Made by a program: the position numbers and the translations under genes
Assembly (NCBI GenBank): GCA_958296135.2
Contig: CATQHZ020000001.1
Location: 4,288,001 to 4,352,000 of the forward strand
DNA from: an uncultured Poribacteria bacterium
Lineage (GTDB): Bacteria > Poribacteria > WGA-4E > WGA-3G
Length of the DNA: 64,000 nucleotides
Direction: 5' to 3'
The notes under the pieces: generated by a model
What the model saw: the letters and a program-made list of their open reading frames with translations, nothing else
What the model was told of the DNA's origin: nothing
The model's database searches: none
Part shown: positions 2,634 to 60,384 of the stretch, one piece after another
Layout: the number at the start of each line of letters is the position of its first letter
Position numbering within the stretch: the stretch's first letter is position 1

Positions 2634-4865
2634 TTAGTTTTTTAGCATCTCCACAATTGCTCGATGCCCCTTGGATTCCGCCAGCATTGCCGCCGTATCG
2701 CCTTGCTGATTTTTCAAGTCGGCATCGGCCTGATGCGCAAGCAGAAGTCGCACGATGTCCGCATATCCGCGCCAAGCGGCATACATTAACGCTGTCTCAC
2801 CCCTGCGGTTGTGCGCATTGACAGCCGCGCCTTTTTCAAGCAGCCGCTTCGTTAATGCAACATCGCCTGTCTTATGGATGATGAAAATGAGCGGAGTATT
2901 GCCGTTGGCATCCGCTACGTTTACCACCGCGCCGTTGTCAATGAGGAACATCGCCACATCGGCATATCCCTTTTCGGCGGCAATGAGTAACGGAGTGCGC
3001 CCCAACGCGTCTTTGTGATTCACCTTCGGACGCGCCGCGCGGGTTGCGTTAACATCGCCACGCCAGACAGCACTGAGAAAATCATCCGGTAATTCGGTGA
3101 GAATGTGTTCCTGATTGGCAGGGAGGTTTTCGTAAACTTCTACAACGCCGCTCGGCCAGCGGATTTCCAACCGAGATGCGCCGGTGTTCTCGCCCAAACC
3201 GAAGTGCAAACGCGCGTCGTGGCTGCTCAGATAACTCGCGCATGGAGTGACATCACGGATGTGCCGCCTCAGCCCGTAGGGCGAGGGCCTGTCCCTCGCC
3301 GTGTCATCCGTTAAAATGACGCGCGCCCCAATCCCATCACGATTGCTGACTGTGCCGACGGTTTTTATCCGCAGCCAATTTTGCTTATTCCCGCTTTCGT
3401 TTCGCAATAAAGTTGCCGGGCCGTTTGACTGCGTGACAAGCATGTCAACATCGCCATCGTTATCGTAATCGCCGAAGCTGCTCCCTCGGCTGACTTGGGC
3501 ACGCTGAAAATAGGGGCCGGCAGTATCAGAAATCTCGCTGAACGTGCCATCGCCGTTATTGCGGAAGAGCTGGTTTGGTTGCGCATACGTGAGGACATCG
3601 TGCGTCTCAGCAATATTGTCAATGATATGCCCATTCGCAATGAAGAGCTCGAACCAGCCATCGTTATCGGCATCAAAAAAACCGGTGCCGAATCCGACAT
3701 AGAGATAACTCTCTTTTCCGAGGCGCGCCTCATAAATCACATCGGTGAAGGTGCCATCGCCGTTGTTACGGTAAAGCGCGTTCGTCTCGTAAGAGAGGTT
3801 CGTAACGAAGATATCCAGCGTGCCATCGCCGTTGTAATCGCCCGCGGCAACGCCCATGCCGGCTTGCGCCACGCCGTTGAAACTATAGGCGCACCCGGCG
3901 AGGAGCGAAAGCTCGCTGAACGTGCCATCGCCGTTGTTAAAGAAAAAGTCGTTGCGGGTGTCGTCGTTGGCGACATAAAGGTCTGGCGTGCCATCGTTAT
4001 TGAAGTCTGCCGAGACGACACCTAACCCCTTCCCGTGAAACATCCCGCCGATGCCGCCCACGCCTGCTTCTTGACTGACATCAGTGAACGTTCCATCGCC
4101 GTTGTTGCGGTAGAGTCTATCCGGCGCGCCTTCAAACAGAGAGGGATGGCAATAAGTGCGCGTCTCGCCTTCACCACACGGACGATAGGGCACATCCAGC
4201 GAATAGTTAAGATAGTTGACGACAAACAGATCGAGGTGCCCATCTCTATCATAATCGAGGAAGCACGCGCTGCTGCTCCAGGCCGCATCGCCGACACCCG
4301 CGTGCGCGGTGACATCGGTAAAAGTGCCATCGCCGTTGTTGCGATAAAGCACATTCGCCCCGAAATTGGTAACGTAGAGCTCGGTATCTCCATCGTTGTC
4401 GTAGTCGGCGCATGCAACGCCTTGGCCATAGTTGCCTCGGTTGCCAACGCCTGCAACGGCGGTGATGTCTGTAAAGGTGCCATCGCCGTTATTCTGATAG
4501 AGCGCAGCGGAAGTGTTGGGACGCATTGCTATATCTGTCCGCCCTGGCCAATAGCCGCTGTTGACGAGGTAAATGTCAAGCGCGCCATCGTTATCAGCGT
4601 CAAAGAAGGCACCGCCGGCACCGAGGGTTTCAGGTAGATGGTAGTCTCCCTCTGCACCGTTGACATGTCGGAAGTGGATGCCAGCCTCTGCCGTAGCGTC
4701 AACGAATTGGACATTCGCAGTTGATAAGCAGGGTATCCCACAACAAAAAAGGAGGATGAGCAGCATTACCGGTAGGCGCGCTTTCGCAGCGCGCTTTGGC
4801 AGCGCGCCCACGCGGTTGGTATGGTTGGTGGCGTGGATAGCGTTTTTCTGCGATGCAAGGTTCAT
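2634..4865 (-). CDS. CRTAC1-like FG-GAP/ASPIC-UnbV protein with C-terminal ankyrin repeats
   Basis: D.DNDG and NNGDGTF repeats, SNRDGIGARV, RLHFGLG, IRWPSG; then GRTPL/GNTPL/GETAL ankyrin repeats; start uncertain. Confidence 0.88.
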   Translation of the reverse strand: MNLASQKNAIHATNHTNRVGALPKRAAKARLPVMLLILLFCCGIPCLSTANVQFVDATAEAGIHFRHVNGAEGDYHLPETLGAGGAFFDADNDGALDIYLVNSGYWPGRTDIAMRPNTSAALYQNNGDGTFTDITAVAGVGNRGNYGQGVACADYDNDGDTELYVTNFGANVLYRNNGDGTFTDVTAHAGVGDAAWSSSACFLDYDRDGHLDLFVVNYLNYSLDVPYRPCGEGETRTYCHPSLFEGAPDRLYRNNGDGTFTDVSQEAGVGGIGGMFHGKGLGVVSADFNNDGTPDLYVANDDTRNDFFFNNGDGTFSELSLLAGCAYSFNGVAQAGMGVAAGDYNGDGTLDIFVTNLSYETNALYRNNGDGTFTDVIYEARLGKESYLYVGFGTGFFDADNDGWFELFIANGHIIDNIAETHDVLTYAQPNQLFRNNGDGTFSEISDTAGPYFQRAQVSRGSSFGDYDNDGDVDMLVTQSNGPATLLRNESGNKQNWLRIKTVGTVSNRDGIGARVILTDDTARDRPSPYGLRRHIRDVTPCASYLSSHDARLHFGLGENTGASRLEIRWPSGVVEVYENLPANQEHILTELPDDFLSAVWRGDVNATRAARPKVNHKDALGRTPLLIAAEKGYADVAMFLIDNGAVVNVADANGNTPLIFIIHKTGDVALTKRLLEKGAAVNAHNRRGETALMYAAWRGYADIVRLLLAHQADADLKNQQGDTAAMLAESKGHRAIVEMLKN

Positions 4866-11200: not shown

Positions 11201-11306
11201 TGTTGAGGATGCGCAATATATCGTTCGGTTGCTTGGGCAGGTGATGCGTGTGAGTGTGGATACGGTGCGGTTGGTTGGGGAATTGCCTTCCCTCCTTGTC
11301 CCGTAG
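8217..11306 (+). CDS. Single-chain restriction-modification enzyme (Type IIG/ISP-like N6-adenine MTase with LlaBIII-like C-terminal specificity domain)
   Basis: N-terminal IDG...WEAK nuclease-like motif, GIVYTP, IIDPFVGTGNF, GNPPY, GVVTARDAW, LGRRSALEWVLDQY. Confidence 0.85.
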   Translation: MMLSIKPTHKPITTYYAELGQYTSLGAQHEGAVRVAFQNLLQHYCGQRHLALICEQTRTTPNGNQIRIDGEIVTDFGLVFGHWEAKDLFDELPAEAQQKLTTGYPAKNIIFQTPHRARLYQNGSLVLDLDITEPRNLVQLLESFFAYTEENLADWDAAVDTFQDTIPELGARLEALIQTERQNTPDFREAFANFHQQCRNAINPNLAETEVERMLAQHLLTERIFRTVFDNPDFTNRNIIAQEIEKVIRVLTRHALNRNQFLNSLDGFYAAVENTARTLTDYSQKQAFLNTVYQRFFQGFSVKTADTHGIVYTPQPIVDFMVNSVQHLLKTHFGKSLADTGVHIIDPFVGTGNFIVRLMQEIPGIALDKKYRGELHCNEVMLLPYYIATMNIEHAYFEKMGRYEPFKHICFVDTFDTFGLMDTPHQTGQFAFLTQENTLRVKEQKDTPMFVVIGNPPYNASQTNENDNNKNRPHEAVDARVRATYAAASTAQLKNKLYDPYVKSLRWASDKIGEEGIIAFITNNSFLDAAMFDGMRQCLAEEFDRLHIVDLGGNIRKGQKGDSNVFGIQVGVSINFFVKTKQQRAGIARIRYTDEAAALSKARTFQFLAAHEHIGNVTWRELQPNARQLWLTEGLEPDFDTFLPMGTKKAKAAKGAVEGTLFKTYSLGVVTARDAWAYNFKPAALQENMTRMMAFFNAECGRWEGRADRDVHVKDFVDTDKTKIKWTRSLLSKLRQGKLATFSPEKIRHSLFRPFTKTHLYLDRMMNECVYVMPAIFPTPETEQENRVICVNLTKEKPFTCLMVDCIPQLTMTGGFGSPTQSFPFYIYDEDGTNRRENITDWALAQFRAHYADETITKWDIFHYNYAVLHHPDYRERYQVNLKHDLPHLPFAPEFWGFVNIGRALADLHVNYEALDVLPNVVETPGVPLNWRVAQMKLSKDKTEVRYNESLTLVDIPPAVFDYQLGRRSALEWVLDQYRVKSDPNGSGIVADPNRVEDAQYIVRLLGQVMRVSVDTVRLVGELPSLLVP

Positions 11307-12165
11307 GGCGAGGTCCTGTGCCTCGCCATGCATCGGTCTATTGAACGTCACTTCTTCACCGTAGGGCGAGGGCCCGGCGATCGCGAATCGCCGAGGGTTC
11401 CCCTCGCCATGTATCGGTCTATTGAACGTCACTTCTTCACCGTAGGGCGCGGGCCCGGCGATCGCGAATCGCCGAGGGTTCCCCTCGCCAGGCATCGGGC
11501 CATCAAGAAGCGTTCGCGGGGGACAAGAACACCCCACTTCACCGTAGGGCGAGGTCCTGTGCCTCGCCATGCATCGATCTATCGAACGTCACTTCTTCAC
11601 CGTAGGGCGAGGTCCTGTGCCTCGCCATGTATCGATCTATCGAACGTCCTTCTTCACCGTAGGGCGAGGGCCCGGCGAGTGAACGATCGCGGGGGACAGG
11701 CCCCCGCGCTACGGGACGAGAACGTTCTATGTCTCTCCAACGATCGCGGGGGACAGTGGACATCTCTGCAGCGAGGCGGCAGAGATGACAACGTTTCGGC
11801 GTGACGGCCCCCGCGCTACGGGCACCGGGGGGTTGTCTGATACCGTAGGGCGAGGTCCTGTCCCTCGCCAGGCATCGGGCCATCGAGAAGCGTTCGCGGG
11901 GGACAGGCCCCCGCGCTACGGGACGAGAACGTTCTATGTCTCTCCAACGATCGCGGGGGACAGTGGACATCTCTGCAGCGAGGCGGCAAAGATGACAACG
12001 TTTCGGCGTGACGGCCCCCGCGCTACGGGCACCGGGGGGTTGTCTGATACCGTAGGGCGAGGTCCTGTCCCTCGCCAGGCATCGGGCCATCGAGAAGCGT
12101 TCGCGGCGGACAGGCCACTACGGGACGAAGGACGATCGCGGGGGACAGGCCCCCGCGCTACGGGT
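11301..12165. repeat. Large REP/BIME-like cluster of ccgtagggcgagg..ccctcgcc palindromes, including a 207-bp tandem duplication
   Basis: More than 10 GTAG-footed palindromes in both orientations; unit starting at 11687 repeats at 11894. Confidence 0.9.
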
Positions 12166-13159: not shown

Positions 13160-14275
13160 ATGGAAGCACTCGTGCTGCACGGCATCGGCGATGTGCGGCA
13201 CCAGCGGATACCGAAGCCGTCCCTCACGGAAGGCACAGTGCGCGTCCGCATCGGGTTTTGCGGTGTGTGCGGCTCCGATATGCCGCGCATCTTCACCAAA
13301 GGCACTTACACCTTTCCGACGGTGTGCGGGCACGAATTCGCGGGCATCGTGGAGGCGTGCGGCGCAGGCGTTGACACTTTCTCGCCCGGCGATGCTGTCG
13401 TCGTCTTTCCGCTGCTCTGGTGTGGGATGTGCCCGGCGTGTGAGCAGGGAAACTATGTGCAGTGCCACGACTACGACTACCTGGGTTCGCGGCGGGATGG
13501 CGCGTTTGCCGAATTTGTCGTCGCGCCGAAAGAAAACCTTATCCGCGTACCGGAAAAGGTCGCGTTGGAAGAAGCAGCGATGACGGAACCCGCGGCTGTC
13601 GCCTTACACGCGCTCCGCCGAGTCGGAACATCGCTCGTCGGTAAAACGGTTGCGATTTTCGGCGCGGGCCCGATCGGACTCATGGCAGCACACTGGGCAC
13701 GGATAATGGGTGCAGCAGACGTGCTTCTCTTTGACATTGTCGCGGCGAAACTAGCACTCGCGAAACGTCTCGGATTTCAGCATGTCTTTCGTAGCGCAGC
13801 CGTAGAAGCGAACGCTAACGAAAACCGGCACGGCTCCGTAGCACGAGGGCCTGTCCCTCGCGGCTGTGCAAAAGACGCGGTAGAAATCGTCAGTGAGCAC
13901 ACGGATGGGCAAGGCGCGCATGTCGCGATTGAAGCCGCCGGCGTGCCGCAAACCTATCGCGATGCCCTCGGCAGTGTGCGTCACGGTGGCAGCGTCGTCT
14001 TGCTCGGCAACCCGATTGCAGACGTAACCTTGCCAGCACCGCTCATCTCGCAATTGATGCGGCGCGAGGTGACGCTCCTCGGCACCTGGAATTCCGATTA
14101 CAGCACCGCCGGTAACGATGATGATTGGCGCGCTGTGCTACAAGCGATGGCATCGGGACAGCTGTCCCTCGCGCCATTGATTACGCACAAAGTGCCGTTG
14201 GCAGATGGCCCAGACATGTTGCACAAAATGAAGGATAAACAGGAATTTTACGCGAAGGTGCTTATGCACCCGTAA
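13160..14275 (+). CDS. Zn-dependent sugar-alcohol (galactitol-1-phosphate-like) dehydrogenase
   Basis: GVCGSD, GHEFAG, CxxCxxC, GAGPIG. Confidence 0.85.
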   Translation: MEALVLHGIGDVRHQRIPKPSLTEGTVRVRIGFCGVCGSDMPRIFTKGTYTFPTVCGHEFAGIVEACGAGVDTFSPGDAVVVFPLLWCGMCPACEQGNYVQCHDYDYLGSRRDGAFAEFVVAPKENLIRVPEKVALEEAAMTEPAAVALHALRRVGTSLVGKTVAIFGAGPIGLMAAHWARIMGAADVLLFDIVAAKLALAKRLGFQHVFRSAAVEANANENRHGSVARGPVPRGCAKDAVEIVSEHTDGQGAHVAIEAAGVPQTYRDALGSVRHGGSVVLLGNPIADVTLPAPLISQLMRREVTLLGTWNSDYSTAGNDDDWRAVLQAMASGQLSLAPLITHKVPLADGPDMLHKMKDKQEFYAKVLMHP

Positions 14276-19742: not shown

Positions 19743-20396
19743 GTGAAAACCTTGGTAATCAGTTCCTGCACGAGCAAGAAACTGAATCACAACGCTCCCG
19801 CCGCCGAGATGTATACCGGCCAACAACATACGCTGTTGATGGAAGGGGTAAACCAAGTCCGAACGCGCTACGGGCAATCAGCCCTCGATCTGGCTATCAT
19901 TTCGGCGGAGTATGGCCTGCTCAACGAACGCGACGTAATCTCGCCTTACAACGTCACCTTTCAAGGGATGAAGAAGGCGGAAATTTTGGAGAAGAGTCGT
20001 CGTCTGCAACTTCATGAACGGGTGACGGAGTTAATCGCGCGGTATGATACGGTTTTCTTTCTGTTAGGGAAAGAATATGTTCAGGCACTTCAACTCCCCT
20101 TGGGGGAATCGGGACCGGGAGAACCCGCCTACCGCCGGGGAGGAGTCCCGGAGTCTGTTACCCAGATTTTCCTGCTCGGCGCGAGTTATCGCAGGCTCAT
20201 TCCTGATGCGCCGAATGTCCATTTCGTTCCTGCAGGGAGTGCGTTGTCGCAGACACTTGGAGTCATGGGAGTTGCGTTGAAAGGGTTCGTGTTCAAAAAG
20301 ATGTGCGAGGCTGTCTGTCGTGAAGGGCTCAATCTCTTTGAAGACATCAGACGAAATCCACAGATGGTCCGCGACATTGCCATGGAGAGCCAATAA
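19743..20396 (+). CDS. DUF6884/YaaA-like hypothetical protein (paralog 2)
   Basis: ISSCTSKK...PAAEMYTG...ISAEYGLL...ISPYNVT. Confidence 0.62.
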   Translation: MKTLVISSCTSKKLNHNAPAAEMYTGQQHTLLMEGVNQVRTRYGQSALDLAIISAEYGLLNERDVISPYNVTFQGMKKAEILEKSRRLQLHERVTELIARYDTVFFLLGKEYVQALQLPLGESGPGEPAYRRGGVPESVTQIFLLGASYRRLIPDAPNVHFVPAGSALSQTLGVMGVALKGFVFKKMCEAVCREGLNLFEDIRRNPQMVRDIAMESQ

Positions 20397-20533: not shown

Positions 20534-21913
20534 ATGCATCTTCCAACACCTATTCCCAACGATACGCCACGGCGCATTATCGGGCGCTCGGCACCGATGC
20601 AGGAGGTCCTTCGCCTTGTGCGGCAGGTTGCGCCGACAAACGCCACGGTGCTCATCACCGGTGAGACAGGGGTGGGCAAAGATGTCATCGCGCAAGCTAT
20701 CCATGAGCGCAGCCCGCGGAAAACCGGACCGTTCAAGGCTGTCAACTGCGGTGTGTTTCACGGCGAGCTGTTGCAAAGCGAGCTTTTCGGACATGAGAAA
20801 GGCGCGTTTACCGATGCCGCCACCCTCCGCCGCGGCGTGTTTGAACAAGCACACACCGGCACGCTGTTCCTCGATGAAGTCGGCGAGATGTCGCCTAAAA
20901 CGCAAGTGGAGTTCCTCCGCGTGCTAGAGACGCGCGAATTTACGCGCCTCGGCGGCGAAAAAAACATTCACGTGGATGTCCGAATTATCGCTGCTACCAA
21001 CGTTGAACTCGGCACATCCGTGCAGCGGAAAACCTTCCGGCAAGACCTTTACTACCGTCTCAACCTCTTTCGCATCCATATCCCACCGTTGCGTGAGCGT
21101 CGCGAGGATATCCCGCTCTTCGTCCACGCGTTCATCGCTGAATTGAGTGCCGAACACGGGAAACCGGTTACCGGTATTACGCCGGCGACACTCGCCTATC
21201 TTGAACAGGCGGACTGGCCAGGCAACGTGCGGGAGCTCCGAAATGCCGTTGAAAGTGCTATCATTGTCGCCGCATCGGACGAATTGGAACGCCGCGATTT
21301 TCCGCTTGATTCGGTGCCTGCGCCGGTCGCTGTGCTGCCCACATTACACACCAATGCCCTGGCACCTGTTGCTGCCGAGCCGCTCGAAAACGTGGCGATT
21401 TACAAGACAATTCTCGGACTGATTTTCGCTGCGCTGCGCTTGCTTGGAGACGATGCTTCCAGCCTCATGCCGGGGAGGAATGAACTGCAGATAGCGATTC
21501 CTGATGAGGATACCAGTTGGCTGCAAATCGCTGATGATGTGGATGCATCGGTTATCCTGCAGAAGGCGTTAGCGGTGCTTTCAACCGTCGCCAAACAAAT
21601 GGAGGAAACGCCTTTGCCGCTGCCTGTACCGGTTGCGGAAGTTCAAGACCGGGAGGGCGCGCCTATTGGCATTCGGGACCGGGAGAACCCGCCGACAGGG
21701 GTTCTTGATGTGGCAATCGTTCCAACGGCGTTTGACGAAGATACCATCGGCAAAGTCGGTATGACGATGGCAGAGATTGAGAAGGCTGCTATCCAAAAGA
21801 CGCTTGTGGAGGCAGACGGAAATAAGACGGAGGCGGCGAAGATTCTGGACATCGGCGTGCGAACGTTGCATCGGAAATTGGAGGCGTATCGGCAGGATGA
21901 GCAGGATGGCTAG
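20534..21913 (+). CDS. Sigma-54-dependent Fis-family activator without N-terminal sensor domain
   Basis: GETGVGKD, SELFGHEKGAFTDA, FLDEVGE, WPGNVREL, C-terminal GNKTEAAKILDI HTH. Confidence 0.9.
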   Translation: MHLPTPIPNDTPRRIIGRSAPMQEVLRLVRQVAPTNATVLITGETGVGKDVIAQAIHERSPRKTGPFKAVNCGVFHGELLQSELFGHEKGAFTDAATLRRGVFEQAHTGTLFLDEVGEMSPKTQVEFLRVLETREFTRLGGEKNIHVDVRIIAATNVELGTSVQRKTFRQDLYYRLNLFRIHIPPLRERREDIPLFVHAFIAELSAEHGKPVTGITPATLAYLEQADWPGNVRELRNAVESAIIVAASDELERRDFPLDSVPAPVAVLPTLHTNALAPVAAEPLENVAIYKTILGLIFAALRLLGDDASSLMPGRNELQIAIPDEDTSWLQIADDVDASVILQKALAVLSTVAKQMEETPLPLPVPVAEVQDREGAPIGIRDRENPPTGVLDVAIVPTAFDEDTIGKVGMTMAEIEKAAIQKTLVEADGNKTEAAKILDIGVRTLHRKLEAYRQDEQDG

Positions 21914-21951: not shown

Positions 21952-24651
21952 TTATTCCTCTACCGTGCTGTAGTAAATCGCATTGAAGAGCAGCTTAAAT
22001 GTGCCGTGCGATTGCCCCCGATGCTGCGGTTTGAATCCAAAGAGAACCACACGTCCTGCGCCGAGGGAAGTTTCTAATAACGCGCCTTTCTGGCGGATGC
22101 GCTTTTCTCCCTCAAGCCACCCGCTCATCAACGGATTAAACGCCGGATACGTCGCGATAACTGCACCGCCGCGCGTGGCATCAAAAACAGGCCCCGATTT
22201 GAAAAAGAGTGCCATCTCCGGTGCTAACCCATACCCAATCGGGTGCTTCGTCTCTATCCGTGCGCGCAACAACGAACCGGGACAGAAAAATACCGCGTCA
22301 GTCGCTTGATTTGTTTTTTTTACCACATTGACGATGCCTCGCTCACTGAGCCCAAAGTATGCCAACGGCAGTTCTGTCGCGCGGTTGAGGCAGATGAGAC
22401 TGCCTCCCTCTTCCACGAACGTGTGCAAATTCGCCAGTCCCTCCGTGCCAATCCCCCCGACATATTCCGGCGGCAACGCGCCTATCGGATGCCCGTTGAG
22501 AATAGCAGCAGCTCCCATGTCCGGCAAAATAATTGCATCGTATCGCGATGCCAACTCGCCCGCGCGGATTTCCGCATTCGTGAGGCTATAATAGACGCAT
22601 TCGTGCGTATCCAACACCCACCGCGTCCATCCTTCGTCCATGTTTGCTGTCCACGGTTTGTAGAGCCCAACGCGGGGAGGTGTCAGTTGTGAGAACGTCC
22701 GGGTGAAAGTTTCGTCGTCAAGCGCGGCATTTGCGTAAATCTGGATGCCAAATTCCTCCGCCAACGCCTGTATCTCTTCAATTTCTAGCGATGCCTGTCC
22801 TTGCTCCGTAGTGCGAGGGCCTGTCCCTCGCAAACGTGCCGCATCAGAAACCGTTCGAGGCGTTGCTATCCTTACCAAAATCGAGCCACGCGCAAACTCT
22901 TTCCCTTGCACCTCAAGTTCACGTCTTGCCCAATACATTTGATATCGCGGGGCACCGTCCGCCAATTTCGCGTTAAACAGGCGATTGAGGACAATAGCCT
23001 CCACGTTCGATCGGTTTTCAAACAGATACCCGGTTGGCTCCGGCACGCGGTGCAACTTTCCCTGCACCGTTGGAAGTGTCTCAACCCGCGTCACATCCGC
23101 CTCAAACGGATGCACCACCGTCACCGTGCGGACACCCATTTGTAACGGCAGCGTCCATCCGGCGATGTCGTAAGGACGCTCGGGCGGCGATTGCGGCGAA
23201 GGCCGGCGTTCCGGATACTGCTGCACCTCCAATAAATCCTTCGCGTGCGCGCGAAAGGGTTGCGACATCAAAACGACGTAAGTTCCTAGCGGATATTCCA
23301 CGCCATCCGCCGTAAACGGCGCGTTCGCCTGATGGATTTCAACACCGCCGCGCTGGAGGATGTCCAACATCTTGCGCGCGGTGTGCCAGTCGCGTTGCTG
23401 CATGGGGATGAGGAAGGCGCGCGGCGGTTCATTTTTGCCCTTCTCTATCGCTTGCAGCCCCATCTGGTAAAAGTTCCTCTTCAGCGTTACCCGATGCTGC
23501 GCGGCAAATGTGAGAATAGAACGCGCCGCTGCCAATTCATAGTCAACGATGTCTCGCAGCCGCCACCATCCCCCCGGCCACGGTTCAGGGAAATTGGTTC
23601 GGAGGGCGTATTTATCCAAGCCGCGCCGATACCCTTTGAGCGTTCCGTGCGGTTGGAAAATCGGGGTGGCAATTTTGACGCGCGCCGCCTCCGTCAAAAT
23701 CCCCACCATGTTATGCCGATACGGCACGGTGCGAAAGCCGCCGTGCCACCACGTATCGTAGACTGCACTTGAAAGCACGCCGGTGAAACCTTGCGAAGTG
23801 AAATCAAAGGCGAGTTGCGCGCCGATGAGCGATAACGTCCGTTGTAACAGCGGCGGGATATTCGGATTCACCGGCTCAAAATAGGGCGGAATCACGAACC
23901 GCGGTCCGCGATAACTCATCTCATGCACATCGTAGACGACTTCCGGAAACCATTCCTCATAAAGCACGCGCGTGAGCAGCTGCGTCTCAACCTGCGTCAA
24001 CATGAACCAATCGCGGTTGTTATCGTGTCCCGTGTATTTCTGATACAGCCACGGCAGTTCTGCGCCTTCATACGGCGTGCCAACTGTGCGCTGATACCAC
24101 TCCACGACAATGTTCAACCCATCAGGGTTTGCCGAAGGAATGAGCAGCACGATGACGTTCTCGAGAATCGCCTGCATTTCGGGAGTCTCCGCCATGGCGA
24201 ATTGATAGGCGAGCTCCATCGACATCTGCGATGAGGCAATCTCGGTGGAATGCAAATTGCAGTTGACCAGGGCGACAGTCTTGCCTTCCTCACAGAAGGT
24301 ATCTAACGTATCACGTCTGTCTGCATCGGGATAAGCGAGTTGCCGCTGGATGGCCTTGTAGCGCGCCAGATTCGCCAAATTCTCCGGCGCAGAGATAAGC
24401 AGCATCACAAAATCGTCGCCTTCTGTCGTCTTACCGAGGACTTCCAGTTGCACCCGGTCTGACGTGTCCGCGACGTGCCGTAGGTAGTTAGAAACGGCTG
24501 TCCATCCGGCGACTTTGTAATCCGCGCCGACTTGAAATCCGAGTGCTTCTTCGGGGGGCATCGGCTGCGCAGCGAGGGGCGAGATGGGTATCCAAAAAGC
24601 GAGCAGTAGCAAGGATATCCAATTGTAGTGAACGCTATCAAACCTTTTCAT
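21952..24651 (-). CDS. Secreted M14 zinc carboxypeptidase with C-terminal class-I glutamine amidotransferase-like domain
   Basis: LHSTE, NPDG, DNNRDW, DVHEM, PYDIAGWTLPL, MDEGWTRW; GGAG RBS before ATG at 24651. Confidence 0.85.
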   Translation of the reverse strand: MKRFDSVHYNWISLLLLAFWIPISPLAAQPMPPEEALGFQVGADYKVAGWTAVSNYLRHVADTSDRVQLEVLGKTTEGDDFVMLLISAPENLANLARYKAIQRQLAYPDADRRDTLDTFCEEGKTVALVNCNLHSTEIASSQMSMELAYQFAMAETPEMQAILENVIVLLIPSANPDGLNIVVEWYQRTVGTPYEGAELPWLYQKYTGHDNNRDWFMLTQVETQLLTRVLYEEWFPEVVYDVHEMSYRGPRFVIPPYFEPVNPNIPPLLQRTLSLIGAQLAFDFTSQGFTGVLSSAVYDTWWHGGFRTVPYRHNMVGILTEAARVKIATPIFQPHGTLKGYRRGLDKYALRTNFPEPWPGGWWRLRDIVDYELAAARSILTFAAQHRVTLKRNFYQMGLQAIEKGKNEPPRAFLIPMQQRDWHTARKMLDILQRGGVEIHQANAPFTADGVEYPLGTYVVLMSQPFRAHAKDLLEVQQYPERRPSPQSPPERPYDIAGWTLPLQMGVRTVTVVHPFEADVTRVETLPTVQGKLHRVPEPTGYLFENRSNVEAIVLNRLFNAKLADGAPRYQMYWARRELEVQGKEFARGSILVRIATPRTVSDAARLRGTGPRTTEQGQASLEIEEIQALAEEFGIQIYANAALDDETFTRTFSQLTPPRVGLYKPWTANMDEGWTRWVLDTHECVYYSLTNAEIRAGELASRYDAIILPDMGAAAILNGHPIGALPPEYVGGIGTEGLANLHTFVEEGGSLICLNRATELPLAYFGLSERGIVNVVKKTNQATDAVFFCPGSLLRARIETKHPIGYGLAPEMALFFKSGPVFDATRGGAVIATYPAFNPLMSGWLEGEKRIRQKGALLETSLGAGRVVLFGFKPQHRGQSHGTFKLLFNAIYYSTVEE

Positions 24652-25464
24652 CAGCGATTTCTCCATTTGCATCATTTTTGCCCGGTGGGCGCGGTTTGAT
24701 GTCCCGCAGTTCCGTAGGGCGAGGGCTGTCCCTCGTCGAGCCATGGCGTACGCGGGGGACAGGCCCCCGCGCTACGTTCCAAGGGGGTTTTGATCTTCAT
24801 CCGAGGGCGATTTCATTGAAAGATAGTCAGAGTCTAACATAAATCACGCGAGATGTCAACATCACAATTGGCATGCATCGGACGATTTAGTTCTTGAATG
24901 AACGGTAAGGGCGGATGTCCCTATCCGCCCGTTCGATTTCGGTGAGAAAAGGCTGGACTTCAGACGCATCTTCAACTCAAAGAGGTAGCGTGCCCATCGC
25001 TGGTGCTAACCGAGCCACTCGGCAGCCTCGCCCATCTTAACTCTTATGTTTTGCATATATCTACATTATACCCCATTTTTAGAGAGACTGCAAATAAAAA
25101 GTGCAGTTCATACAGATTATTACGGAGTTAATCATAAGTGTCTAGGTTCTTGCGCCCTGCACCGAGCCCCTTGTTGCCGAACCAAGCGTTCCTTCAGACC
25201 TGGAATTCCCCATTCAAACAACATCGATAAAAAATCTTTCCTTGACAATTTCTCCACGTTATGATATTTTATACAGAAGGTTTTTGGGACATGCATCCCC
25301 AGAACATCTAAACACGCGCTCAAGGAGGAAAATAGGACGGACGCAAGGGCTATCAGCTGCCACCGGTAGGCTCGGTTTGAAACCCCGTCTACGGCGTTGA
25401 GTCTGCGTTCGTGCTAGAAAAGAGAAACTGAATGAAAAAAGTTGACATCATCCCATCTATAAAC

Positions 25465-34845: not shown

Positions 34846-34860
34846 CTTGTCCTCCAATAC

Positions 34861-35118: not shown

Positions 35119-35894
35119 TTCAACGAGTACCCAAATTCCTTCGCGATTTCCTCAAATGGGATAAGTTTTGCGGTTCCAGCCTTAATCGCCGCATCCTCCT
35201 CGTCAATTTCAGCTTCAACTTCTGGGGATAACTCAAATCCATCGTCCGGATCGTAGTGATATGCCTCCAGGGCGAGTGCCAGCAGTTCATAAGCGACGAA
35301 GAACTCCCGAAACGCTAACTCCAATTGCTCGCGCGAAGGGGCCCCGGCCAGCAAGGCGACAACGCGTTCACGCACCACGAAGATTTCCTGCAGGACGAGC
35401 CTTCGGACGAGCGCGCGAAAGGCCTCTGGTGGCAACTCGGCTATCTTCTTCTCCGGCGCCACATCGCTGGCGAGATAGCATCCTGTCCGTCTAGCCCGGC
35501 GTTCCTCAAGCGTTGTTGTCCGATGGGCGAGGATATAGTCGCGGTGCCGCGCCAGTTTTTTGGCGAGGGGGGTGTGGGGCGCGAGGCCTTCCCCCGGGTC
35601 TGCCTCATAGTCATCTAGCCAAAAGGCGATACTTTCATAGCCGCAGAAAAATGCGCGGAATTCCGTCGCGAGCGGCGATTCGGGAATCGGCACGCCGCCT
35701 ATCGGCCGGAGCAGCGCGCCGGGTTCGACGTGAAAGGCGGCTGGAGTGACAGCATGCTCATCGTAGCGGGCTGAGCCCGGGTCTTTCAGCAGCTCAATGA
35801 GCCGTTCGCGCGAGTCAAAAAAGGCTTCCGCCTCGGTGACTCGCTGGAGCAGTTCGCGTAAGTCGTCTGTGGACATGTCGCCTAATTTTTTCAT
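35106..35894 (-). CDS. Large putative antitoxin, copy A
   Basis: Near-identical to copy B except the C-terminal tail; overlaps the toxin start. Confidence 0.7.
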   Translation of the reverse strand: MKKLGDMSTDDLRELLQRVTEAEAFFDSRERLIELLKDPGSARYDEHAVTPAAFHVEPGALLRPIGGVPIPESPLATEFRAFFCGYESIAFWLDDYEADPGEGLAPHTPLAKKLARHRDYILAHRTTTLEERRARRTGCYLASDVAPEKKIAELPPEAFRALVRRLVLQEIFVVRERVVALLAGAPSREQLELAFREFFVAYELLALALEAYHYDPDDGFELSPEVEAEIDEEDAAIKAGTAKLIPFEEIAKEFGYSLKCTR

Positions 35895-39474: not shown

Positions 39475-40155
39475 ATGAAAGAGAGTTTGCAGAACATCGG
39501 CGATCTCATCGCGGAACCGAGTGCGGCGTTTGGACGCATCAAATCTGCACCGAAGTGGGGTGTCGCTTTTGTCGTCTTCTATCTGTTTTCTGTCCTGCTT
39601 GGATGGGCAGTCGCGCCGTATTCCGCTGCGCTTATCGCCGAACAAATGTCACAAAGCGAACTGTCGCCGCAAGAACGTCAGGCTGCTGAGACGATAACGG
39701 GTGTCTTCAAGACAGTCGGCCTGTTTCTCTGGCCGATTTTCATGATGCTGTGGTTCCTCTTATACAGTGCTATCCTCAAACTCGCGGCGCGTTTTGGTAA
39801 CAACGATTCCCTGTCCTTTCGGCACATCTATGCCGCTGTCGTGCATACGGCACTGATTGGTTGCGTGATTGCCCTCGTCAACACGGCTCTGCTGCTCCTG
39901 TTCCGAGACGTTGCGGATGTGAAAAACGCCGCGGATATGAAAATGATACCGGGCTTGCACATGCTGTTCGGTTCACTTGAGAATGTGAGACTGATGACGT
40001 TTCTGAGTCATATCAATCCGTTAAGCGTGTGGGTAATCGCCGTGACGGCCATCGCCGTAGCCGTGCTTGCCGATGTAGAGAAAACCAGGGCCCGGCTCGC
40101 GGCGGTAATCATCTGGCTCATTGGTATTATGGCTGACGTGCTCTTTCTCTCTTAA
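39475..40155 (+). CDS. Yip1-like membrane protein
   Basis: PS.AF.RIK..PKW, five TM segments, INPLSVW. Confidence 0.72.
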   Translation: MKESLQNIGDLIAEPSAAFGRIKSAPKWGVAFVVFYLFSVLLGWAVAPYSAALIAEQMSQSELSPQERQAAETITGVFKTVGLFLWPIFMMLWFLLYSAILKLAARFGNNDSLSFRHIYAAVVHTALIGCVIALVNTALLLLFRDVADVKNAADMKMIPGLHMLFGSLENVRLMTFLSHINPLSVWVIAVTAIAVAVLADVEKTRARLAAVIIWLIGIMADVLFLS

Positions 40156-41000: not shown

Positions 41001-44000
41001 ATGAACACAAAAGAAAGTTACGCGGAACTACAAGAGAAGATTTTAGGCGCGCGGCGCGTCTGGCGACGCGGGCTCTTCTGGACCGGGGCAGCCATCGTCC
41101 TGACAGGGCTGCTCGCGATAGTCGTCGGCGAATCCATCGTCGATTGGCTGATGCCGTTGCCGAACCCGGTGCGCATCGCGTTGCTCGCTGGCATTGTCAT
41201 CACGACAGGCTACCTGCTTTACAGGTATCTCGTCAAACCGCTGCGGGCATCTCTCACGCTGCGGGATGTCGCCCTCAACGTGGAACGGAACCACCCGAAC
41301 CTTGAGGATAGACTCGTCAGTGCCGTGCAATTCGGCAATCGCGACACCACGGATGCGATTGAAGCACACATGTTGCGCCGGTTGCTTGAGGATACAACGG
41401 AGCGCGTGAAAGGCATCGATTTCAAAGCCACCGTAGATGGCAGTCGGACGCGGAAGCACGTCGGTATCGCCGCCTTAGTCGTCGCCGGGTGTGCCGTGCT
41501 GTCGCTTTTGTTTCCCTCGGAGATTCATACGAGTTTGCTACGGGTGCTGGTGCCGTGGGAGAAAACTGAGCCGATTTTGACGACGAAGCTCACCGTTACG
41601 CCCGGAAATGCGCGCATTTTGCGCGGGAAAAGTTTGCCGATTCACGTCACCGTTACCGGTAAAGCTGCCGATAAAGTTATCTTGACGTATGGGGCAAATG
41701 ATGCCGCTCGGGCGCGCTTGCAACGCGCGCCTACCGAAGAGGGCCCCGCTGAACAACAGATTAATATGGTGCAGCATCCGGAGGATAAACGCGGCTTTGC
41801 TTACGAGATTTTCAACATTGACGCGGATATGGCATACTACGTCCAAGCAAACGAGGCGACATCGGAACGTTACACCGTGGATGTGTTTGAGATGCCGCGG
41901 GTGACAGACATCGCTGTTACCTACACCTATCCAGAGTATACTGGGCTGAAACCTGTCGTGCAGCAAGGCACAGGGGATATCCATGCTGTTGTCGGCACCC
42001 GTGCAGAAATCCGGTTGGCGACAAACAAAGCCATCCAAACGGCGACGTTTACGGTGAAGACTCGCGACCGGCAGGACGCGGCTGCCGGGACGGCGCGCTT
42101 GCAAAGCACGCCTACCGAAACGGATGAACCTGCTGCGCAGACACAAACGGAGATGGTTATTTCCGATGGCAACACGCTCACGACAACGCTAGATGTCTCC
42201 GAAGATGGGACATATTCCGTTGAACTCTTCTGCATTGATGGATTCAACAATGAGATTCCGGTTGAATACGAAATCCGTGCAGTGCCAGATAACGCCCCCG
42301 AGGTTGTCATCAAAGAGCCCGGGCGCGATGTCAAAGCGACAAAATTAGAAGAGGTGCAAATCGTCGCCGAGGCGAAGGACGACTACGGCGTTGAAAAGTT
42401 GTCCCTGATGTATCGCGTCGGTGCTGGCGAATTGCAGGAGCTCGCCATGGAGACAGCGGATATTGAAGAACAGCATCTCCGCCGCGGCACTTATACCTTC
42501 TACATGGAGGAGTTTGACGTGGAGCCGGGCGAAGTTATCTCTTACTATGCGCAAGCCACCGATAACAATACGCTCACCGGACCCGGCGAGGCAAACAGCG
42601 AGATTTACTTCATTGAGGTGCGGCCCTTTAACGAACGGTTCCAAGAAGAAGAGGGGGAACCGGGAGAACCTGCGCCGAATGTCGCCTTGGAGCTCATCGC
42701 CACCCAGAAGCAGATTATCCGAGAGACGTGGCAGCATATCAACGCCGCTCCTACGCCCATCACGGAAGACTATCGGTTCGCCGTAACGCAGACAGGAGAA
42801 AAGCAGTCCAAAGCGAAAGATAAGACGCAGCGGTTCGTTGACGAAATCAGCATGGCGATGCAGACAGCCGCGGTCGCGCCGGAAATTCTGATGAACTTGG
42901 AAGATGCCATCGACAGGATGCGCGAGGCGAGCGATAGCCTCAACGCCATCCAGCCGACAGCGGCGATGCCCCCCGAACAAGAAGCGTTAGAACTGCTTAT
43001 CAAAGTCGGCCTTGAACTCCCAAAAGTGCTGACACAAATGCGCAATAGTAACCCGCAAGCCGCGGAAAACCTTGAGTTGGAGATGGAGGAACTGCAGAGC
43101 GAAATTGAGCAAGACCAGGGCGAACTGGACCAGGAGATGCGGGAGCAGACGCAAGAAATGCTGAATCAGGCGCGGGAGATGTTAGAGGAACAGCAGCAAC
43201 TCAATCAACAGAGCCAGCAGTTGGGTAGAGAAAACCAACCCTCACCGAGTGAGATGCAGCAGAATAGCCAGCAGCAGGGACAGTTGTCGCAGCAAGCGCA
43301 GCAGATGTCCCAGCAGTTGGGACAGATGCAAGGCAGCGGACAAGGCACCCAATCGCAACGCCTCAGTCAAGCCGGGCAAGCGATGCAGCAGGCTGGCGAG
43401 CAGATGCAACAGGCGGCGCAAGGGATGCAACAGCAGGAACCGCAGCTGGGTGCCGCCAAGGGGGAACAAGCGGCAGCGCGGCTTGAAGAGGCGATTGAGC
43501 AACTGGAGAGCGTCGCCGCCGAACTTTCTGAGGATGCGCTTGAGGACGCTGTGCAGGCACTGCAGCAGTTGACGGAGGAGCAATCTGATGTGCAACAGCA
43601 GACGCAGGAGTTGCGGAATCGCGCGGCGCAATCGTCAATGCAGCCGGAAGATTTCGAGCAAGCCTCTGATTTGGCAAATCAGCAGCGGGAGCTTCAGCGA
43701 GAGCTGGAGTCTCTTGAGGGCGCGTTGCAGCAGCTTCAGGAGCAGCTCAACGCCGAGAATCCAGAGGCATCTCGAAACGTAGCGGATGCCGCCAGCCGCC
43801 TCACGGAAGAACAGACAGCGGCGGATATGGCGACGGCGCAGCGCGCCTTGCAATGGCGGAGTTTCCGTGCCGCGGACCAGAATCAGCAAGAGGTGCTAGA
43901 GACGCTGGAGCAGGCGCAGTCAGATTTGCAGCAGGCGCAGGCGAATATGGCGACAACGGAAGAGGCGCAGCTGGAAGCCGCTCTGGCACAACTCCAAAGC

Positions 44001-50339: not shown

Positions 50340-50350
50340 AGTATGTTCCT

Positions 50351-51646: not shown

Positions 51647-51754
51647 TATGGTTTTCCTCTCTCGGCAAAAATCGGGACCGGGCCCTGGGTATCGGGACCA
51701 GGAGGTCCCTCCTACCGGGCCCTGGGTTTAGGTTACAATTTAGCATATTTGGGG

Positions 51755-52078
51755 TTTTGTTTGCAAGAAAAAAAGAGGTTCCGCCGCGGAAACCTCTTTT
51801 CGGTAGGCGGGTTCTCCCGGTCCCGATTCTTCCACTGTCTGAGCGATCAAGTCGCCAGCATCGTGGACTCTGCCGTAATTTCCATCCTGAGGGATAATCT
51901 GAAATCTGGGTCTGAATTTTGTTTGCAAGAAAAAAAGAGGTTCCGCCGCGGAAACCTCTTTTCGGTAGGCGGGTTCTCCCGGTCCCGATTCTTCCACTGT
52001 CTGAGCGATCAAGTCGCCAGCATCGTGGACTCTGCCGTAACTTCCATCCTGAGGGATAATCTGAAATCTGGGTCTGAA
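51755..52078. repeat. 162-bp tandem duplication containing a hairpin, a REP and a TIR gene fragment
   Basis: Units 51755-51916 and 51917-52078 differ by one substitution seen by eye. Confidence 0.88.
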
Positions 52079-56654: not shown

Positions 56655-57497
56655 CTACATTTTCTTTCCAATATGGATGGCGACGATGCCGAACGTCTTC
56701 CGATAAAACTGCACATCCGTTAGCCCGCATTTTTCCATCATTTCTTTCAACGCGTCGCAATTCGGGAAGCGCATGACAGAACGAGGGAGATAGCCGTAAG
56801 CATCGTCTTTATTGCGCGAGATGAGATTGCCAAGGAACGGCAAGATGCGCTTGAAATAGAAATAGTAGAGTTGTCGGAACAAGGGGTTCACGGGTTGCGT
56901 AAATTCCAAGATGGCGATTCTACCGCCCGGCACCGCGACGCGCGTCATCTCGCGGATACCCAGTTCCAGATTTCTGGACACCGATTCGGTGATGAAGGAG
57001 GGCAGCTCAGGAAAACCTGCGCTGCGAGGTAGAGACGTAACGGGTTGGGCATCTGAGTCCTGTTGAGGGTTCTGGGCGAATTCTGCGTTTGCGACGTTCC
57101 GAATGCCGAAGCCTACCGAGACAATGTCAAAGGTGTTGTCCAGAAACGGGAGTGTGAAGGTATCCGCTGCAATAAACGGCGCGCTGGTGCCCCGACGCGC
57201 CACCTTTTGATTTCCCACGACTAACATCTCAAGGCAGAAATCTGAACCGATAACGGTGCCGCCCTCATTAACCCCGGTAGGCGCGCTTTGCAAGCGCGCG
57301 AGTTCCTCCGCGTAGGCGAGGGCCAACTCACCCGTGCCGGTGCAGACATCCAGCACCTTGCTTTTCGGCGTGACGCGGCTTGCCTTCACCGTCTCGCGCC
57401 GCCACATCGTATCGCGCCTGAGACTTAGGAGCGAATTGAGGAAGTCATAGTGGCGCGCGATGCGGGCAAAGAGGTTTTTGATTCGGTTTGCGTGCAT
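56655..57497 (-). CDS. menG: Demethylmenaquinone/UbiE-type methyltransferase
   Basis: F.RIA.HYD.LN, LDVCTGTG, GFGIRNV, ILEF, Y.YL..S. Confidence 0.85.
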   Translation of the reverse strand: MHANRIKNLFARIARHYDFLNSLLSLRRDTMWRRETVKASRVTPKSKVLDVCTGTGELALAYAEELARLQSAPTGVNEGGTVIGSDFCLEMLVVGNQKVARRGTSAPFIAADTFTLPFLDNTFDIVSVGFGIRNVANAEFAQNPQQDSDAQPVTSLPRSAGFPELPSFITESVSRNLELGIREMTRVAVPGGRIAILEFTQPVNPLFRQLYYFYFKRILPFLGNLISRNKDDAYGYLPRSVMRFPNCDALKEMMEKCGLTDVQFYRKTFGIVAIHIGKKM

Positions 57498-57930: not shown

Positions 57931-60384
57931 CTACAGCCGCAATTCCGCACCCAACTCCCGATTGAGACGCTGAACCACCTTCTCATGGAGCCGGTTAACC
58001 GCTTTGTCTGTCAACGTCTCGGTTGCGGAATGATACGCAATCGTATAGGCAAGGCTCTTCTTGCCCGCCGGCACCGGGTCGCCGACATAGAGGTCGAACA
58101 ACAGCACGGATTCTACCAACTCGCCGCCTGTCGCATAGATGAGGGCTATCGGTTCGTCTGCCGGAATGTCGGCATCCAGCACAATCGCCAAGTCACGTTG
58201 GACTTTCGGATAGATGGAAATCGGTTCAAAGCGTTTGGAGAACGCAGCGGCTTCCGAGAGTACCCCCAGGTCGAATTCAAAAAGGTATGCCTTGTAGGGC
58301 AAATCGTAGTTTTCAAGAACGCTCGGGTGCGCTTCGCCGAAGATACCGAGTCGCGACCGGGAGGGCGAACCTACCAGCACTTGTGCATTGCGGCCGGGAT
58401 GGAAGGTGGGTTCATCGGTTCGCGCAAGCGTGTAATCGACGATGCCGCACACTTCCAGCAGGCCCTCCACGATGCCTTTGATGTCAAAGAAATCAGGAGC
58501 GCGATAGGCATCGCCGTAGACACCGCCGCCAATGTCACCAGCGAGAATGCCTGCCACGCGCGCCGGTTCATCAATGCCACACGCAGCAGTAGGGGGGCTT
58601 GGCACGCGCGCATCCCCCACTAGGAACACCGTGGACACCTCAAATAACGCAATAGTGTTGATTTGGTGATTGTGGTTGTGCCGCGCATTTTCAAGCAGAC
58701 TCGGCAATAGCGTCGTGCGGAGTACGGACATCTCCGGGCTCAGTGGGTTTCGCAACTGCACTGCCTCACGACGCGCGTCTTTTTCACCCAGGCGGAGCCT
58801 GTCAAAGCAACTCGGAGCACAAAAACTATAGTTTACCGCCTCCATCATCCCCGATGCCAGCAGAAAACGCTTGACGCACCGATGAACTTCCAGCTTGACA
58901 TCTGGTTCCGGCATCGGAATATCCCCTTTGGGCAACGTCGTCGGGATGTTATCGTAGCCGTAGACGCGGGCGATTTCTTCAACCAGATCGATCTCGCGGG
59001 TAACATCCGCGCGGAACGTCGGCACGGTAACCTGATAGGTGTCAGCATCACTATGCTCAATGTGAAAACCGAGGCGCGTTAAAATCTCCACCATCTCTGT
59101 CGCTTTAATCTCGGTGCCTAAGACGAAATTGACGCGCGCCGGCCGAAGTTGCATCTGGCATGGCGGCACTTCGCCCGGATAGACATCAACAGCCCCTTCA
59201 CAGAGGGTGCCACCGGCGAGTTCAACGATGAGATGTGCCGCCCGGTCCAGCGCAACGATGACTGCCCCCGGGTCCGTGCCGCGCTCAAATCGGTAGGATG
59301 CATCCGTGTGGATGCCTAACGCCTTTGAGGTGGCGCGGACACTAGCGGGATTGAAATAGGCACTCTCCAGGAGCACATCGCGCGTCTCTTCCGTGATTTC
59401 CGAATCGTAGCCGCCCATGATGCCCGCGAGTGCCACCGGCTCTTCGGCATCGGCAATGACGAGCATGTCGGGAGTGAGTGCCCGTTCAACTTCATCAAGC
59501 GTTGTTATCCGTTCGCCTGCCGCCGCCCGGCGCACAACGATGCGGTTCTCGGCGAGCTTGTGATAATCAAAGGCATGAAGCGGTTGCCCATATTCCATCA
59601 GCACAAAATTCGTCACATCAACGATGTTGTTGATAACGCCTACGCCTACAGATTTCAACCGACGCTGAAGCCATTCGGGAGAGGGGCCGATTTTAACGCC
59701 TTGAATAACGCGCGCAGCATAGCGCGGGCAAAGCGCGGGCGCAGCGATGGACACCGAAGTGGTTTCTCGGATATCAGGCCCGCTAGCGTGCTTAAAAAGC
59801 GCGCCTACGGAGTCTGGCAGCTTCAGCGGATTACCGGTATCGGCGCGGATTTCGCGCGCCACGCCAATAAGACTGAGGCAATCGGCGCGATTCGGCGTAA
59901 TCTCTAACTGCATGACGACATCGTCTAATCCTAACGCCTCGGCAAGCGGAGTGCCGGGGGAAAGGGCTGACGGTAATTCCATGAGGCCCGCGGCATCGTC
60001 TGAGATACCGAGCTCTTTTTCGGAGCAGAGCATTCCGTGAGATTCGGTGCCGCGCAGTTTGGCACGTTTGATTGTCAAACCGCTCGGCAATTCCGTGCCG
60101 ATAGTTGCAACCGGGGCCAGCATGCCTTCCCGCGCGTTCGGTGCCCCGCACACAATCTGGAGCACTGCTGCCTCGCCGACATCTACCCGGCAAACCACCA
60201 ATTTATCAGCATTCGGATGCCGGGTAATCGCGTTCACTTTGCCCACGACTACACCCGCAAGTTCGGCACCGAGGTGCCGCATCGATTCAACTTCAATGCC
60301 GAGCATTGTCAAGCGTTCGGCCAGTTTGCTGGGGGAAAGCGCGAAATCGATATAGGTTTTTAGCCAATTGAAGGTTACGTGCAT
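57931..60384 (-). CDS. pheT: Phenylalanine--tRNA ligase beta subunit
   Basis: HPNADKL, IVCGAPN, ITPNRADC, GQPLHAFD, RFERG, EIDLVEE, RDLA, GKKSLA. Confidence 0.98.
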   Translation of the reverse strand: MHVTFNWLKTYIDFALSPSKLAERLTMLGIEVESMRHLGAELAGVVVGKVNAITRHPNADKLVVCRVDVGEAAVLQIVCGAPNAREGMLAPVATIGTELPSGLTIKRAKLRGTESHGMLCSEKELGISDDAAGLMELPSALSPGTPLAEALGLDDVVMQLEITPNRADCLSLIGVAREIRADTGNPLKLPDSVGALFKHASGPDIRETTSVSIAAPALCPRYAARVIQGVKIGPSPEWLQRRLKSVGVGVINNIVDVTNFVLMEYGQPLHAFDYHKLAENRIVVRRAAAGERITTLDEVERALTPDMLVIADAEEPVALAGIMGGYDSEITEETRDVLLESAYFNPASVRATSKALGIHTDASYRFERGTDPGAVIVALDRAAHLIVELAGGTLCEGAVDVYPGEVPPCQMQLRPARVNFVLGTEIKATEMVEILTRLGFHIEHSDADTYQVTVPTFRADVTREIDLVEEIARVYGYDNIPTTLPKGDIPMPEPDVKLEVHRCVKRFLLASGMMEAVNYSFCAPSCFDRLRLGEKDARREAVQLRNPLSPEMSVLRTTLLPSLLENARHNHNHQINTIALFEVSTVFLVGDARVPSPPTAACGIDEPARVAGILAGDIGGGVYGDAYRAPDFFDIKGIVEGLLEVCGIVDYTLARTDEPTFHPGRNAQVLVGSPSRSRLGIFGEAHPSVLENYDLPYKAYLFEFDLGVLSEAAAFSKRFEPISIYPKVQRDLAIVLDADIPADEPIALIYATGGELVESVLLFDLYVGDPVPAGKKSLAYTIAYHSATETLTDKAVNRLHEKVVQRLNRELGAELRL

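Follow-up and report, generated by a model that had tools for sequence, protein, structure and literature searches.

Short GTAG-footed palindromic repeats within protein-coding genes of a Candidatus Poribacteria genome

This study deals with short palindromic repeats of the repetitive extragenic palindrome (REP) type, units of ~24-30 bp with a GTAG foot, which lie in frame inside protein-coding genes of an uncultured Candidatus Poribacteria bacterium. The window, i.e., the whole stretch of 64,000 nucleotides (nt) that was analysed, represents G000:C1:4288001-4352000 of a 5.19 Mb assembly. The Poribacteria relatives compared here are, according to paper titles, mostly sponge symbionts. A sequence-only reading of the window had named nine stretches in open reading frames (ORFs) as REP-like insertions. 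All nine are found at their positions and each starts or ends with GTAG or a foot deviating in one letter; moreover, the peptides given for them are the in-frame translations in proteins of the Pfam families named (Table 1). PheT, which was also named as a host, does carry a REP, with three copies instead of one.

REP copies and their host genes in the window

Table 1. REP copies of the window and transposase genes elsewhere in the genome. Positions refer to the window unless preceded by C1; scores are in bits.
Feature	Position	Strand	Context	Peptide	Score or evidence
Family A REP	3276..3299	+	antisense in FG-GAP/ASPIC-UnbV/ankyrin (CRTAC1-like) gene 2634-4865 (-)	ARDRPSPY, aa 523-530	40.9
Family B REP pair	4772..4811	+	apparent N-terminal extension of CRTAC1-like ORF
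Array of 13 family A REPs	11303..12161	.	intergenic
Family A REP	13838..13861	+	sense in Zn-dehydrogenase gene 13160-14275 (+)	VARGPVPR	35.7
Family C REP	20109..20132	-	in DUF6884 gene 19743-20396 (+)		26.0
Two decayed family C REPs	21643..21696	-	linker before helix-turn-helix, sigma-54 activator 20534-21913 (+)		23.0, 19.8
Family A REP	22808..22831	+	antisense in M14 peptidase gene 21952-24675 (-)	RGTGPRTT	37.7
Two family C REPs	37574..37633	-	sense, DuOB-RecQ linker, gene 36029-38260 (-)		30.6, 24.9
Decayed A-like match	40037..40060	-	in Yip1 gene 39475-40155 (+)		21.4, match only
Family B REP	41711..41734	-	antisense in DUF4175-like gene (to 44450, +)	ARLQRAPT	36.5
Second family B REP	42092..42115	-	same DUF4175-like gene	ARLQSTPT	35.4
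Family B REP	57277..57300	+	antisense in menG/ubiE 56655-57497 (-)	LARLQSAPT, aa 66-74	35.1
Family C REP	58351..58374	-	sense in pheT 57931-60384 (-)	VGSPSRSR	20.9
Decayed B-like REP	58589..58612	+	in pheT, aa 588-600		17.7
Family B REP	59785..59808	-	sense in pheT	VGALFKHA, aa 193-200	28.5
RAYT, family C	C1:3734400-3734867				NF047646 (NCBIfam REP_Tyr_transpos) 127.6 vs cut-off 80; HUH and Tyr motifs
RAYT-like, family A	C1:4791068-4791577		14 family A REPs nearby		best model NF047646
Truncated third RAYT-like gene	C1:3058997 (G000:C1:3058937-3059190)		directly behind two-footed family B REP

In the CRTAC1-like protein the REP peptide lies within the ASPIC/UnbV domain (hairpin z-score -3.7) and the protein is 10 amino acids (aa) longer here than in three of three orthologs from other genera (G009, G012 and G016); G002, which together with G001 belongs to the same genus, is deleted at this place. 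The family B pair of the same ORF probably lies upstream of the true start, as suggested by the G002 ortholog starting just past the pair, and was not counted as internal. In the Zn-dehydrogenase the REP is part of a ~23-aa insert that is common to G001 and missing in 11/11 orthologs of other genera; the invariant Cys and His columns are intact, and the structure model was too poor for use with a predicted local distance difference test (pLDDT) value of 54. For the sigma-54 activator the REPs are present in G001, expanded in G002 and missing in all four aligned orthologs of other genera (G004, G006, G008 and G012). The REP of the M14 peptidase is located in a 21-aa insert, has a decayed counterpart in G002 and is missing in G001 and in the 11/11 aligned other-genus orthologs, one more row being unaligned. 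The two REPs of the RecQ linker are common to G001 and G002, and 8/8 orthologs from other genera are ~10 aa shorter. This RecQ protein has an N-terminal dual OB domain, its gene adjoins two DUF488 genes and its open frame is ~100-200 aa shorter than in other genera.

Together with MenG, these are the proteins for which orthologs of other genera were found to be without the REP residues; the presence of these residues in orthologs, which according to the sequence-only reading would refute it, was thus not observed. Two hosts are less clear in this respect. Both DUF4175 copies sit in length-variable linkers. The first is common to G001 and half lost in G002, with a net gain of 4 aa compared to G016; at the second, with a net gain of 9 aa, 30 nt flanked by short direct repeats are missing in G001, which retains the foot. 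For DUF6884 the retrieval of orthologs gave only G002, which has a longer family C array at the site, and none outside the genus, so that the comparison is confined to the genus.

The REP in MenG accounts for a gain of 10 aa compared to 15 of 16 orthologs from other genera, the remaining one (G005) having an unrelated tandem repeat at this place. In the model the Coq5-like fold is kept (template modelling score 0.71 to 4obw), the invariant motifs are intact, and the REP peptide would lengthen the helix of residues 57-70 and form a loop before the strand of residues 81-86. MenG contains a second insert of ~37 aa (aa 138-175, window 56990-57085), which is shorter in G002 and missing in other genera; it was rejected as a REP candidate, being single-copy in the genome, and its model has a pLDDT below 50 for aa 138-162.

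PheT was compared to 77 loci of relatives; the alignment and the tree comprise 76 rows, with L074 and L078 dropped as no frame was picked for them. The gene is single-copy, with one match per genome in 31/31 genomes, and its REP sites coincide with places that are length-variable in comparison to 2rhs. The copy at 58351 results in a net gain of 3 aa (75/76 rows are 3 aa shorter), the copy at 59785 in a net gain of 4 aa (71/76 rows are 4 aa shorter; in G002 a REP of family C takes this place). These gains are that small because host codons went too, showing that insertion is often replacement. Contigs from four runs of one sample span the DUF4175, MenG and PheT copies with identical letters, which therefore are not assembly artefacts, the sample being a possible source of the assembly and thus not an independent support. 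Among the listed contigs of this sample there is no empty allele and no precise skip of a REP; the contig joints listed link REP copies and represent repeat artefacts.

The large intergenic array starts at the end of a type ISP restriction gene (8217-11306), and its first foot gives the TAG stop of this gene, which has no internal REP. Several type ISP restriction-modification paralogs (e.g., 1116622, 1485616, 3176272 and 4410501 of G000:C1) have REP arrays directly behind the same FFVK motif, and the paralog orthologs in G002 carry a different REP family at the FFVK position.

Number, placement and reading frames in the genome

The genome was scanned with 14 weight matrices obtained from the commonest chromosomal GTAG 24-mers. 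These resolve three main families, A, B and C, and a minor family D. At a threshold of 24 bits 3,627 GTAG-footed copies were found genome-wide, compared to 0 matches in the reversed chromosome, and a hairpin follows GTAG at ~6.0% of its sites compared to 0.9-2.7% for eight other tetramers. Genes were called with our own hexamer model (3,848 genes, 84% coding). They contain 383 matches compared to 9 after their codons had been shuffled synonymously once, a control that is conservative because the encoded peptides are kept; the matches thus are far more frequent than in codon-shuffled sequence. In total, 3,111 copies (86%) are intergenic, 133 lie across gene edges and 308 are internal, with 38 matches near starts and 37 near ends set aside. 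After dropping both-strand doubles, 304 internal copies remain at 238 sites in 194 of the 3,848 genes, i.e., 222 independent events in 180 protein families, and ~2,600 residues are added to the 194 proteins. With a stricter threshold of 30 bits there are 209 internal copies in 137 genes. The claim that REPs are routinely inserted into genes has to be seen in relation to their density, which is 0.072 REP/kb in genes and 3.9/kb between genes, i.e., ~54-fold lower inside; moreover, the window is richer than the genome average (9 of ~50 genes with a REP vs 194/3,848). The REP foot also supplies 96 of the 1,333 TAG stops genome-wide.

It is hardly credible that the REPs reside in degenerating or wrongly annotated genes, or that the matches are chance GC-rich palindromes. 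The gene calls are home-made, 38 matches close to gene starts were considered doubtful and not counted, and the hosts are somewhat more divergent than other genes, all of which would fit such an explanation. However, the excess over the codon shuffle and the gaps in the orthologs speak against it, and the hosts include single-copy pheT, found in 31/31 genomes, and enzymes with intact catalytic columns.

The internal copies are filtered by reading frame. Only 1 of the 304 uses the frame in which the foot is read as TAG, and two-footed copies of family B account for 259/548 intergenic but 3/70 genic ones. In none of the three families does the use of the open frames agree with expectation (p 8e-7, 8e-43 and 6e-7 on 222 independent events), the favoured frames being VARGPVPR in 36/86 events of family A, ARLQSAPT in 45/68 of family B and VGETSRSR in 30/67 of family C. 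Frame enrichment follows the loop-like composition of the variable segments of G016 (rho 0.63, p 0.012) and drops with the content of aromatic residues and Cys (rho -0.67, p 0.007) and with net positive charge (rho -0.56), as judged from 15 frames and four post hoc tests; the proline content of the 15 frames does not predict their use (p 0.27). An origin of the antisense B copies from two-footed copies with an in-frame TAG rescued by a point mutation was considered and rejected, as 2/46 codons are one step from TAG compared to 14% of all codons.

Internal copies are further from the consensus, i.e., have lower scores, than intergenic ones, and the ratio of nonsynonymous to synonymous change (pN/pS) is 0.85 and not different from 1 (p 0.13; 247 distinct copies), indicating that the peptides drift. 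This decay bears on a further explanation, namely that the hairpins are kept for a role as nucleic acid, as in mRNA pausing or decay, interdomain ribosome pausing or as DNA-binding sites, with the peptide being incidental. Copies of families A and B still fold well as DNA hairpins (z -2.0 to -6.1 for five copies; family C folds weakly with z -1.1, +1.1 and -0.4 for three copies), many copies lie in linkers, they are commonest in long proteins (62/240 genes of at least 800 aa carry a REP), and REPs serve as RNA elements elsewhere (PMC3733652). We nevertheless regard this explanation as very unlikely, as the internal copies are more decayed than the intergenic ones, both orientations are about equally used (147 sense, 157 antisense), a given site is filled in some sister species and not in others, and long genes are larger targets anyway.

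Comparison with orthologs and turnover of REP sites

The ortholog comparisons were done on samples comprising 1.22 of 5.06 Mb for G016 and 0.52 of 5.66 Mb for G002, and the counts of shared sites are small. For 43 sites an ortholog was available in G016, three of which were dropped due to unalignable flanks. At 33 of the remaining 40 sites the protein is at least 5 residues longer here (median +10.5), compared to 2/154 positions drawn at random from these genes and 19/1,156 in REP-free genes. Moreover, 582 ortholog pairs with G016 revealed 131 segments with a surplus of at least 6 residues here and 92 that are longer in G016. A REP match of at least 14 bits was present in 50 of the 131 longer segments and in 3 of 131 control segments; 26 of the other 81 match at least 5 further places of the genome and represent decayed REPs and other repeat families. 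A constant repeat length divisible by three was not supported, the net gains ranging from -10 to +86 aa and the array periods beside the family C transposase gene from 28 to 34 nt. These comparisons support the REP peptides being lineage-specific additions to the proteins.

The distribution of the repeats among genomes is uneven. Within the genus, family A reaches 572, 1,006 and 4,245 copies in the three genomes; G004 has 2 copies, and 57/61 genomes scanned have none. Family B and C patterns occur in 30/41 genomes and are highest in the genus. With the REP models of this genome, 8/220 ORFs of the G002 sample show an internal match, compared to 0/590 ORFs of G016, whose own families are not among the models.

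Next to presence and absence, the sites show turnover. A REP is also found in G002 at 11 of 29 sites, eight times of the same and three times of another family (one more site could not be aligned), and in G001 at 3/6 sites, with 1/186 in the control. Many sites thus are older than the split of the genus; the other 18 of the 29 have no scoring REP in G002. The DNA alignments show growth of arrays, a length difference of 30 nt flanked by short direct repeats with the foot left, and a foot kept with another hairpin. In PheT the loop of aa 588-600 carries three different REP peptides in the window, L003 and L018, its closest relatives, and others in L050 and L025, whereas peptides similar to family C (DREVAPT type) occur in another loop of L057, L069 and L076, which are apart on the tree. 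PheT of relatives thus also carries REP peptides and the process is not limited to this genome. On the tree 17 changes explain 19/76 rows; as the label mixes REP and non-REP inserts, this number shows scattered gains and is not a count of REP events. As a separate observation, the same 10-aa hairpin-derived insert recurs in PheT proteins of taxa without adjacent positions on the tree (L009, L016, L020 and L046 at core column 127; L026 and L050 at column 275). Its hairpin seems to lie behind TTAG rather than GTAG, and the inserts would be due either to recombination or to repeated insertion of another family.

This turnover might suggest active re-targeting, in which a RAYT (REP-associated tyrosine transposase) and its REPs cut and rewrite those REPs that are already in genes, the loops being maintained as hypervariable cassettes that are possibly useful for the host. 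The three different peptides in one PheT loop among closest relatives, the other family in G002 at 3/29 sites, and one more site with the foot kept and a different hairpin are in line with this. Several shared copies are near the consensus in both species with four-fold third positions just 56-75% identical, and E. coli-type RAYTs cleave beside REPs and can transfer strands (PMC8266576). We consider re-targeting unlikely, however. Permissive loops are few, so that repeated hits are expected without targeting, and the two busiest PheT loops vary in length even in REP-free rows. Furthermore, pN/pS gives no sign of positive selection, 18/29 sites are without a scoring REP in G002, and no empty allele was seen among the listed contigs of the one sample. 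It seems similarly improbable that RAYT and REP act as a recurrent loop editor which revisits genic REPs, including those in essential pheT, swaps, expands or deletes them, and leaves some loops kept as variable cassettes. In this reading it would be the principal origin of the loop sequence gained by the proteome, for which the 50 REP-bearing segments among the 131 longer ones are the evidence.

Transposases, known systems and origin of the REP peptides

The repeats had been assigned to the RAYT type, and no transposase is visible in the window. The assignment agrees with two Y1 transposase genes elsewhere in the genome, both outside the window (Table 1). Around the family C gene 19 family C REPs lie within 900 nt. 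The truncated third gene is possibly the relic of a family B transposase. Among the genomes compared, 25/31 have Y1 transposases; G005 (4.0 Mb), which is without these REP families, has 34 matches, mostly of IS200 length. In other bacteria RAYTs bind their REPs and cut single-stranded DNA next to the GTAG hairpin at a CT/CA-type site, with strand transfer being possible as well, and the mechanism of spread is described as unsettled (PMC8266576); by analogy, an action of RAYTs on the REPs of this genome appears plausible.

Coding insertion by short GTAG-footed REPs, which the sequence-only reading offered as its own inference, is supported by our data and had been published before. GTAG REPs located wholly inside ORFs were described with most cases in Opitutus terrae (70 entries in ~62 ORFs, the ORF count made by eye), and neutral placement in loops was suggested there (Di Nocera et al., 2013, PMC3733652). 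Both sets consist of GTAG palindromes of several families that occur in ORFs singly, paired or grouped, encode 7 to ~50 residues and can be present several times per gene. In both, ASPIC/UnbV proteins, helicases and tRNA synthetases are hit, feet serve as TAG stops and RAYT genes are flanked by repeats. The present genome belongs to another phylum, has other repeat families and contains 304 copies in 194 genes compared to the 70 entries, a rough ratio as the methods differ; with the same reservation, the absolute number may be two- to fourfold that of the GTAG cases in print. The genome-wide ortholog test, the frame analysis and the site turnover have no counterpart in the portions of PMC3733652 examined.

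Rickettsia palindromic elements (RPEs), to which the sequence-only reading referred as an established case, are likewise selfish palindromes in frame in many proteins: in R. felis 85/728 lie in ORFs (PMC1166351), a coding share of 12% compared to 8% here. In contrast to RPEs, with a unit of ~105-146 bp or a CGTC foot, the units here have ~24-30 bp and a GTAG foot, and RAYT genes are present in the genome; the elements work like RPEs and are not RPEs proper. Fusions of repeats and ORFs are also covered by a review (PMC3184786). With the REP/REPIN-RAYT systems (PMC8266576; bioRxiv 10.1101/2021.07.10.451892) the repeats share the foot and hairpin, family-specific RAYT genes flanked by REPs and big swings of copy number between sisters, but REPINs are reported to be almost exclusively extragenic (bioRxiv 10.1101/2021.07.10.451892), while 8% are internal here. 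A literature search, which covered few subscription papers, gave no report of REPs in genes of Poribacteria. The kind of event, i.e., intragenic GTAG REPs and RPEs, is therefore already known; novelty lies in the phylum, in the scale and in the turnover of sites. The ortholog test, the matching transposases, the frame filter and the repeated use of sites extend the earlier descriptions.

The explanation we favor, and regard as likely, is a RAYT-driven spread of REPs that is filtered by purifying selection, with the surviving copies being near-neutral passengers. The repeats would be ordinary RAYT-associated REPs of one genus of Poribacteria that multiplied to thousands. As can be deduced from other RAYTs, HUH tyrosine transposases would nick single-stranded DNA beside the GTAG-footed hairpin and, together with host repair, seed new copies, some of which would hit genes, in many cases at the expense of adjacent host bases. 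Nearly all genic copies would then be cleared by purifying selection. Those surviving would keep the frame, avoid the TAG of the foot, sit in a tolerant loop or linker and encode a polar peptide of the Pro/Ser/Thr type. An occupied site would be unstable and may grow to an array, collapse between short repeats or be overwritten by another family. We infer from the intact frames that the peptides are actually made, and they look like tolerated baggage with no new function.

Several points weigh against this explanation. At 7 of the 40 sites compared to G016 fewer than 5 residues are gained, three of them falling short of G016 by 5 residues or more. The host genes are more divergent, with a median identity to G016 of 69.3% (39 genes) compared to 75.6% for 306 others, which would also fit tolerant proteins and partly be an effect of the gaps. 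The family A RAYT stays below the NCBIfam cut-off (57.6 vs 80), family B has a RAYT fragment only, and no Y1 transposase was found in REP-rich G001, which is 86% complete. The frame bias of family B (45/68) exceeds the trend with composition, so insertion chemistry could contribute, and a slight excess of change at third codon positions (p 0.043) hints at a weak constraint on the peptides. Finally, the data demonstrate the presence of the REPs, their lineage-specific insertion, their depletion in genes, the frame filter, the near-neutral decay and the turnover of sites; RAYT catalysis, translation of the peptides and their neutrality for fitness are deduced from sequence evidence.

No new system and no function of the peptides is demonstrated by these data. 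They do provide a large and clean natural experiment on selfish DNA making new protein sequence, which comprises three families, the transposase genes matching them and relatives whose sites are filled, empty or swapped, and a map of loops in PheT, MenG, RecQ and other proteins that accept ~10 extra residues. Moreover, they may be of use in clarifying the way in which REPs are spread by RAYTs. For the annotation of Poribacteria they imply that REPs are often the origin of stop codons, of N-terminal extensions and of short inserts.

Further repeats were observed next to the REPs. Peptides in frame also come from other repeat families (GYRNPPL-like and VIDNVDDG-like, each having tens to ~190 blastn hits) in several genes of G000:C1, e.g., at 697543, 761363, 528034 and 3335108. 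An intergenic direct repeat of ~162 nt with family C REPs (window 51690-52070) yields a spurious ORF of 220 aa, and two tandem near-duplicate ORFs of ~260 aa each (34075-34857 and 35106-35894) are without a Pfam match. The 144-kb contig G000:C2, with 37% G+C compared to 54% for the chromosome, may be a plasmid, a phage or a contaminant, and GTAG hairpins are not in excess on it.

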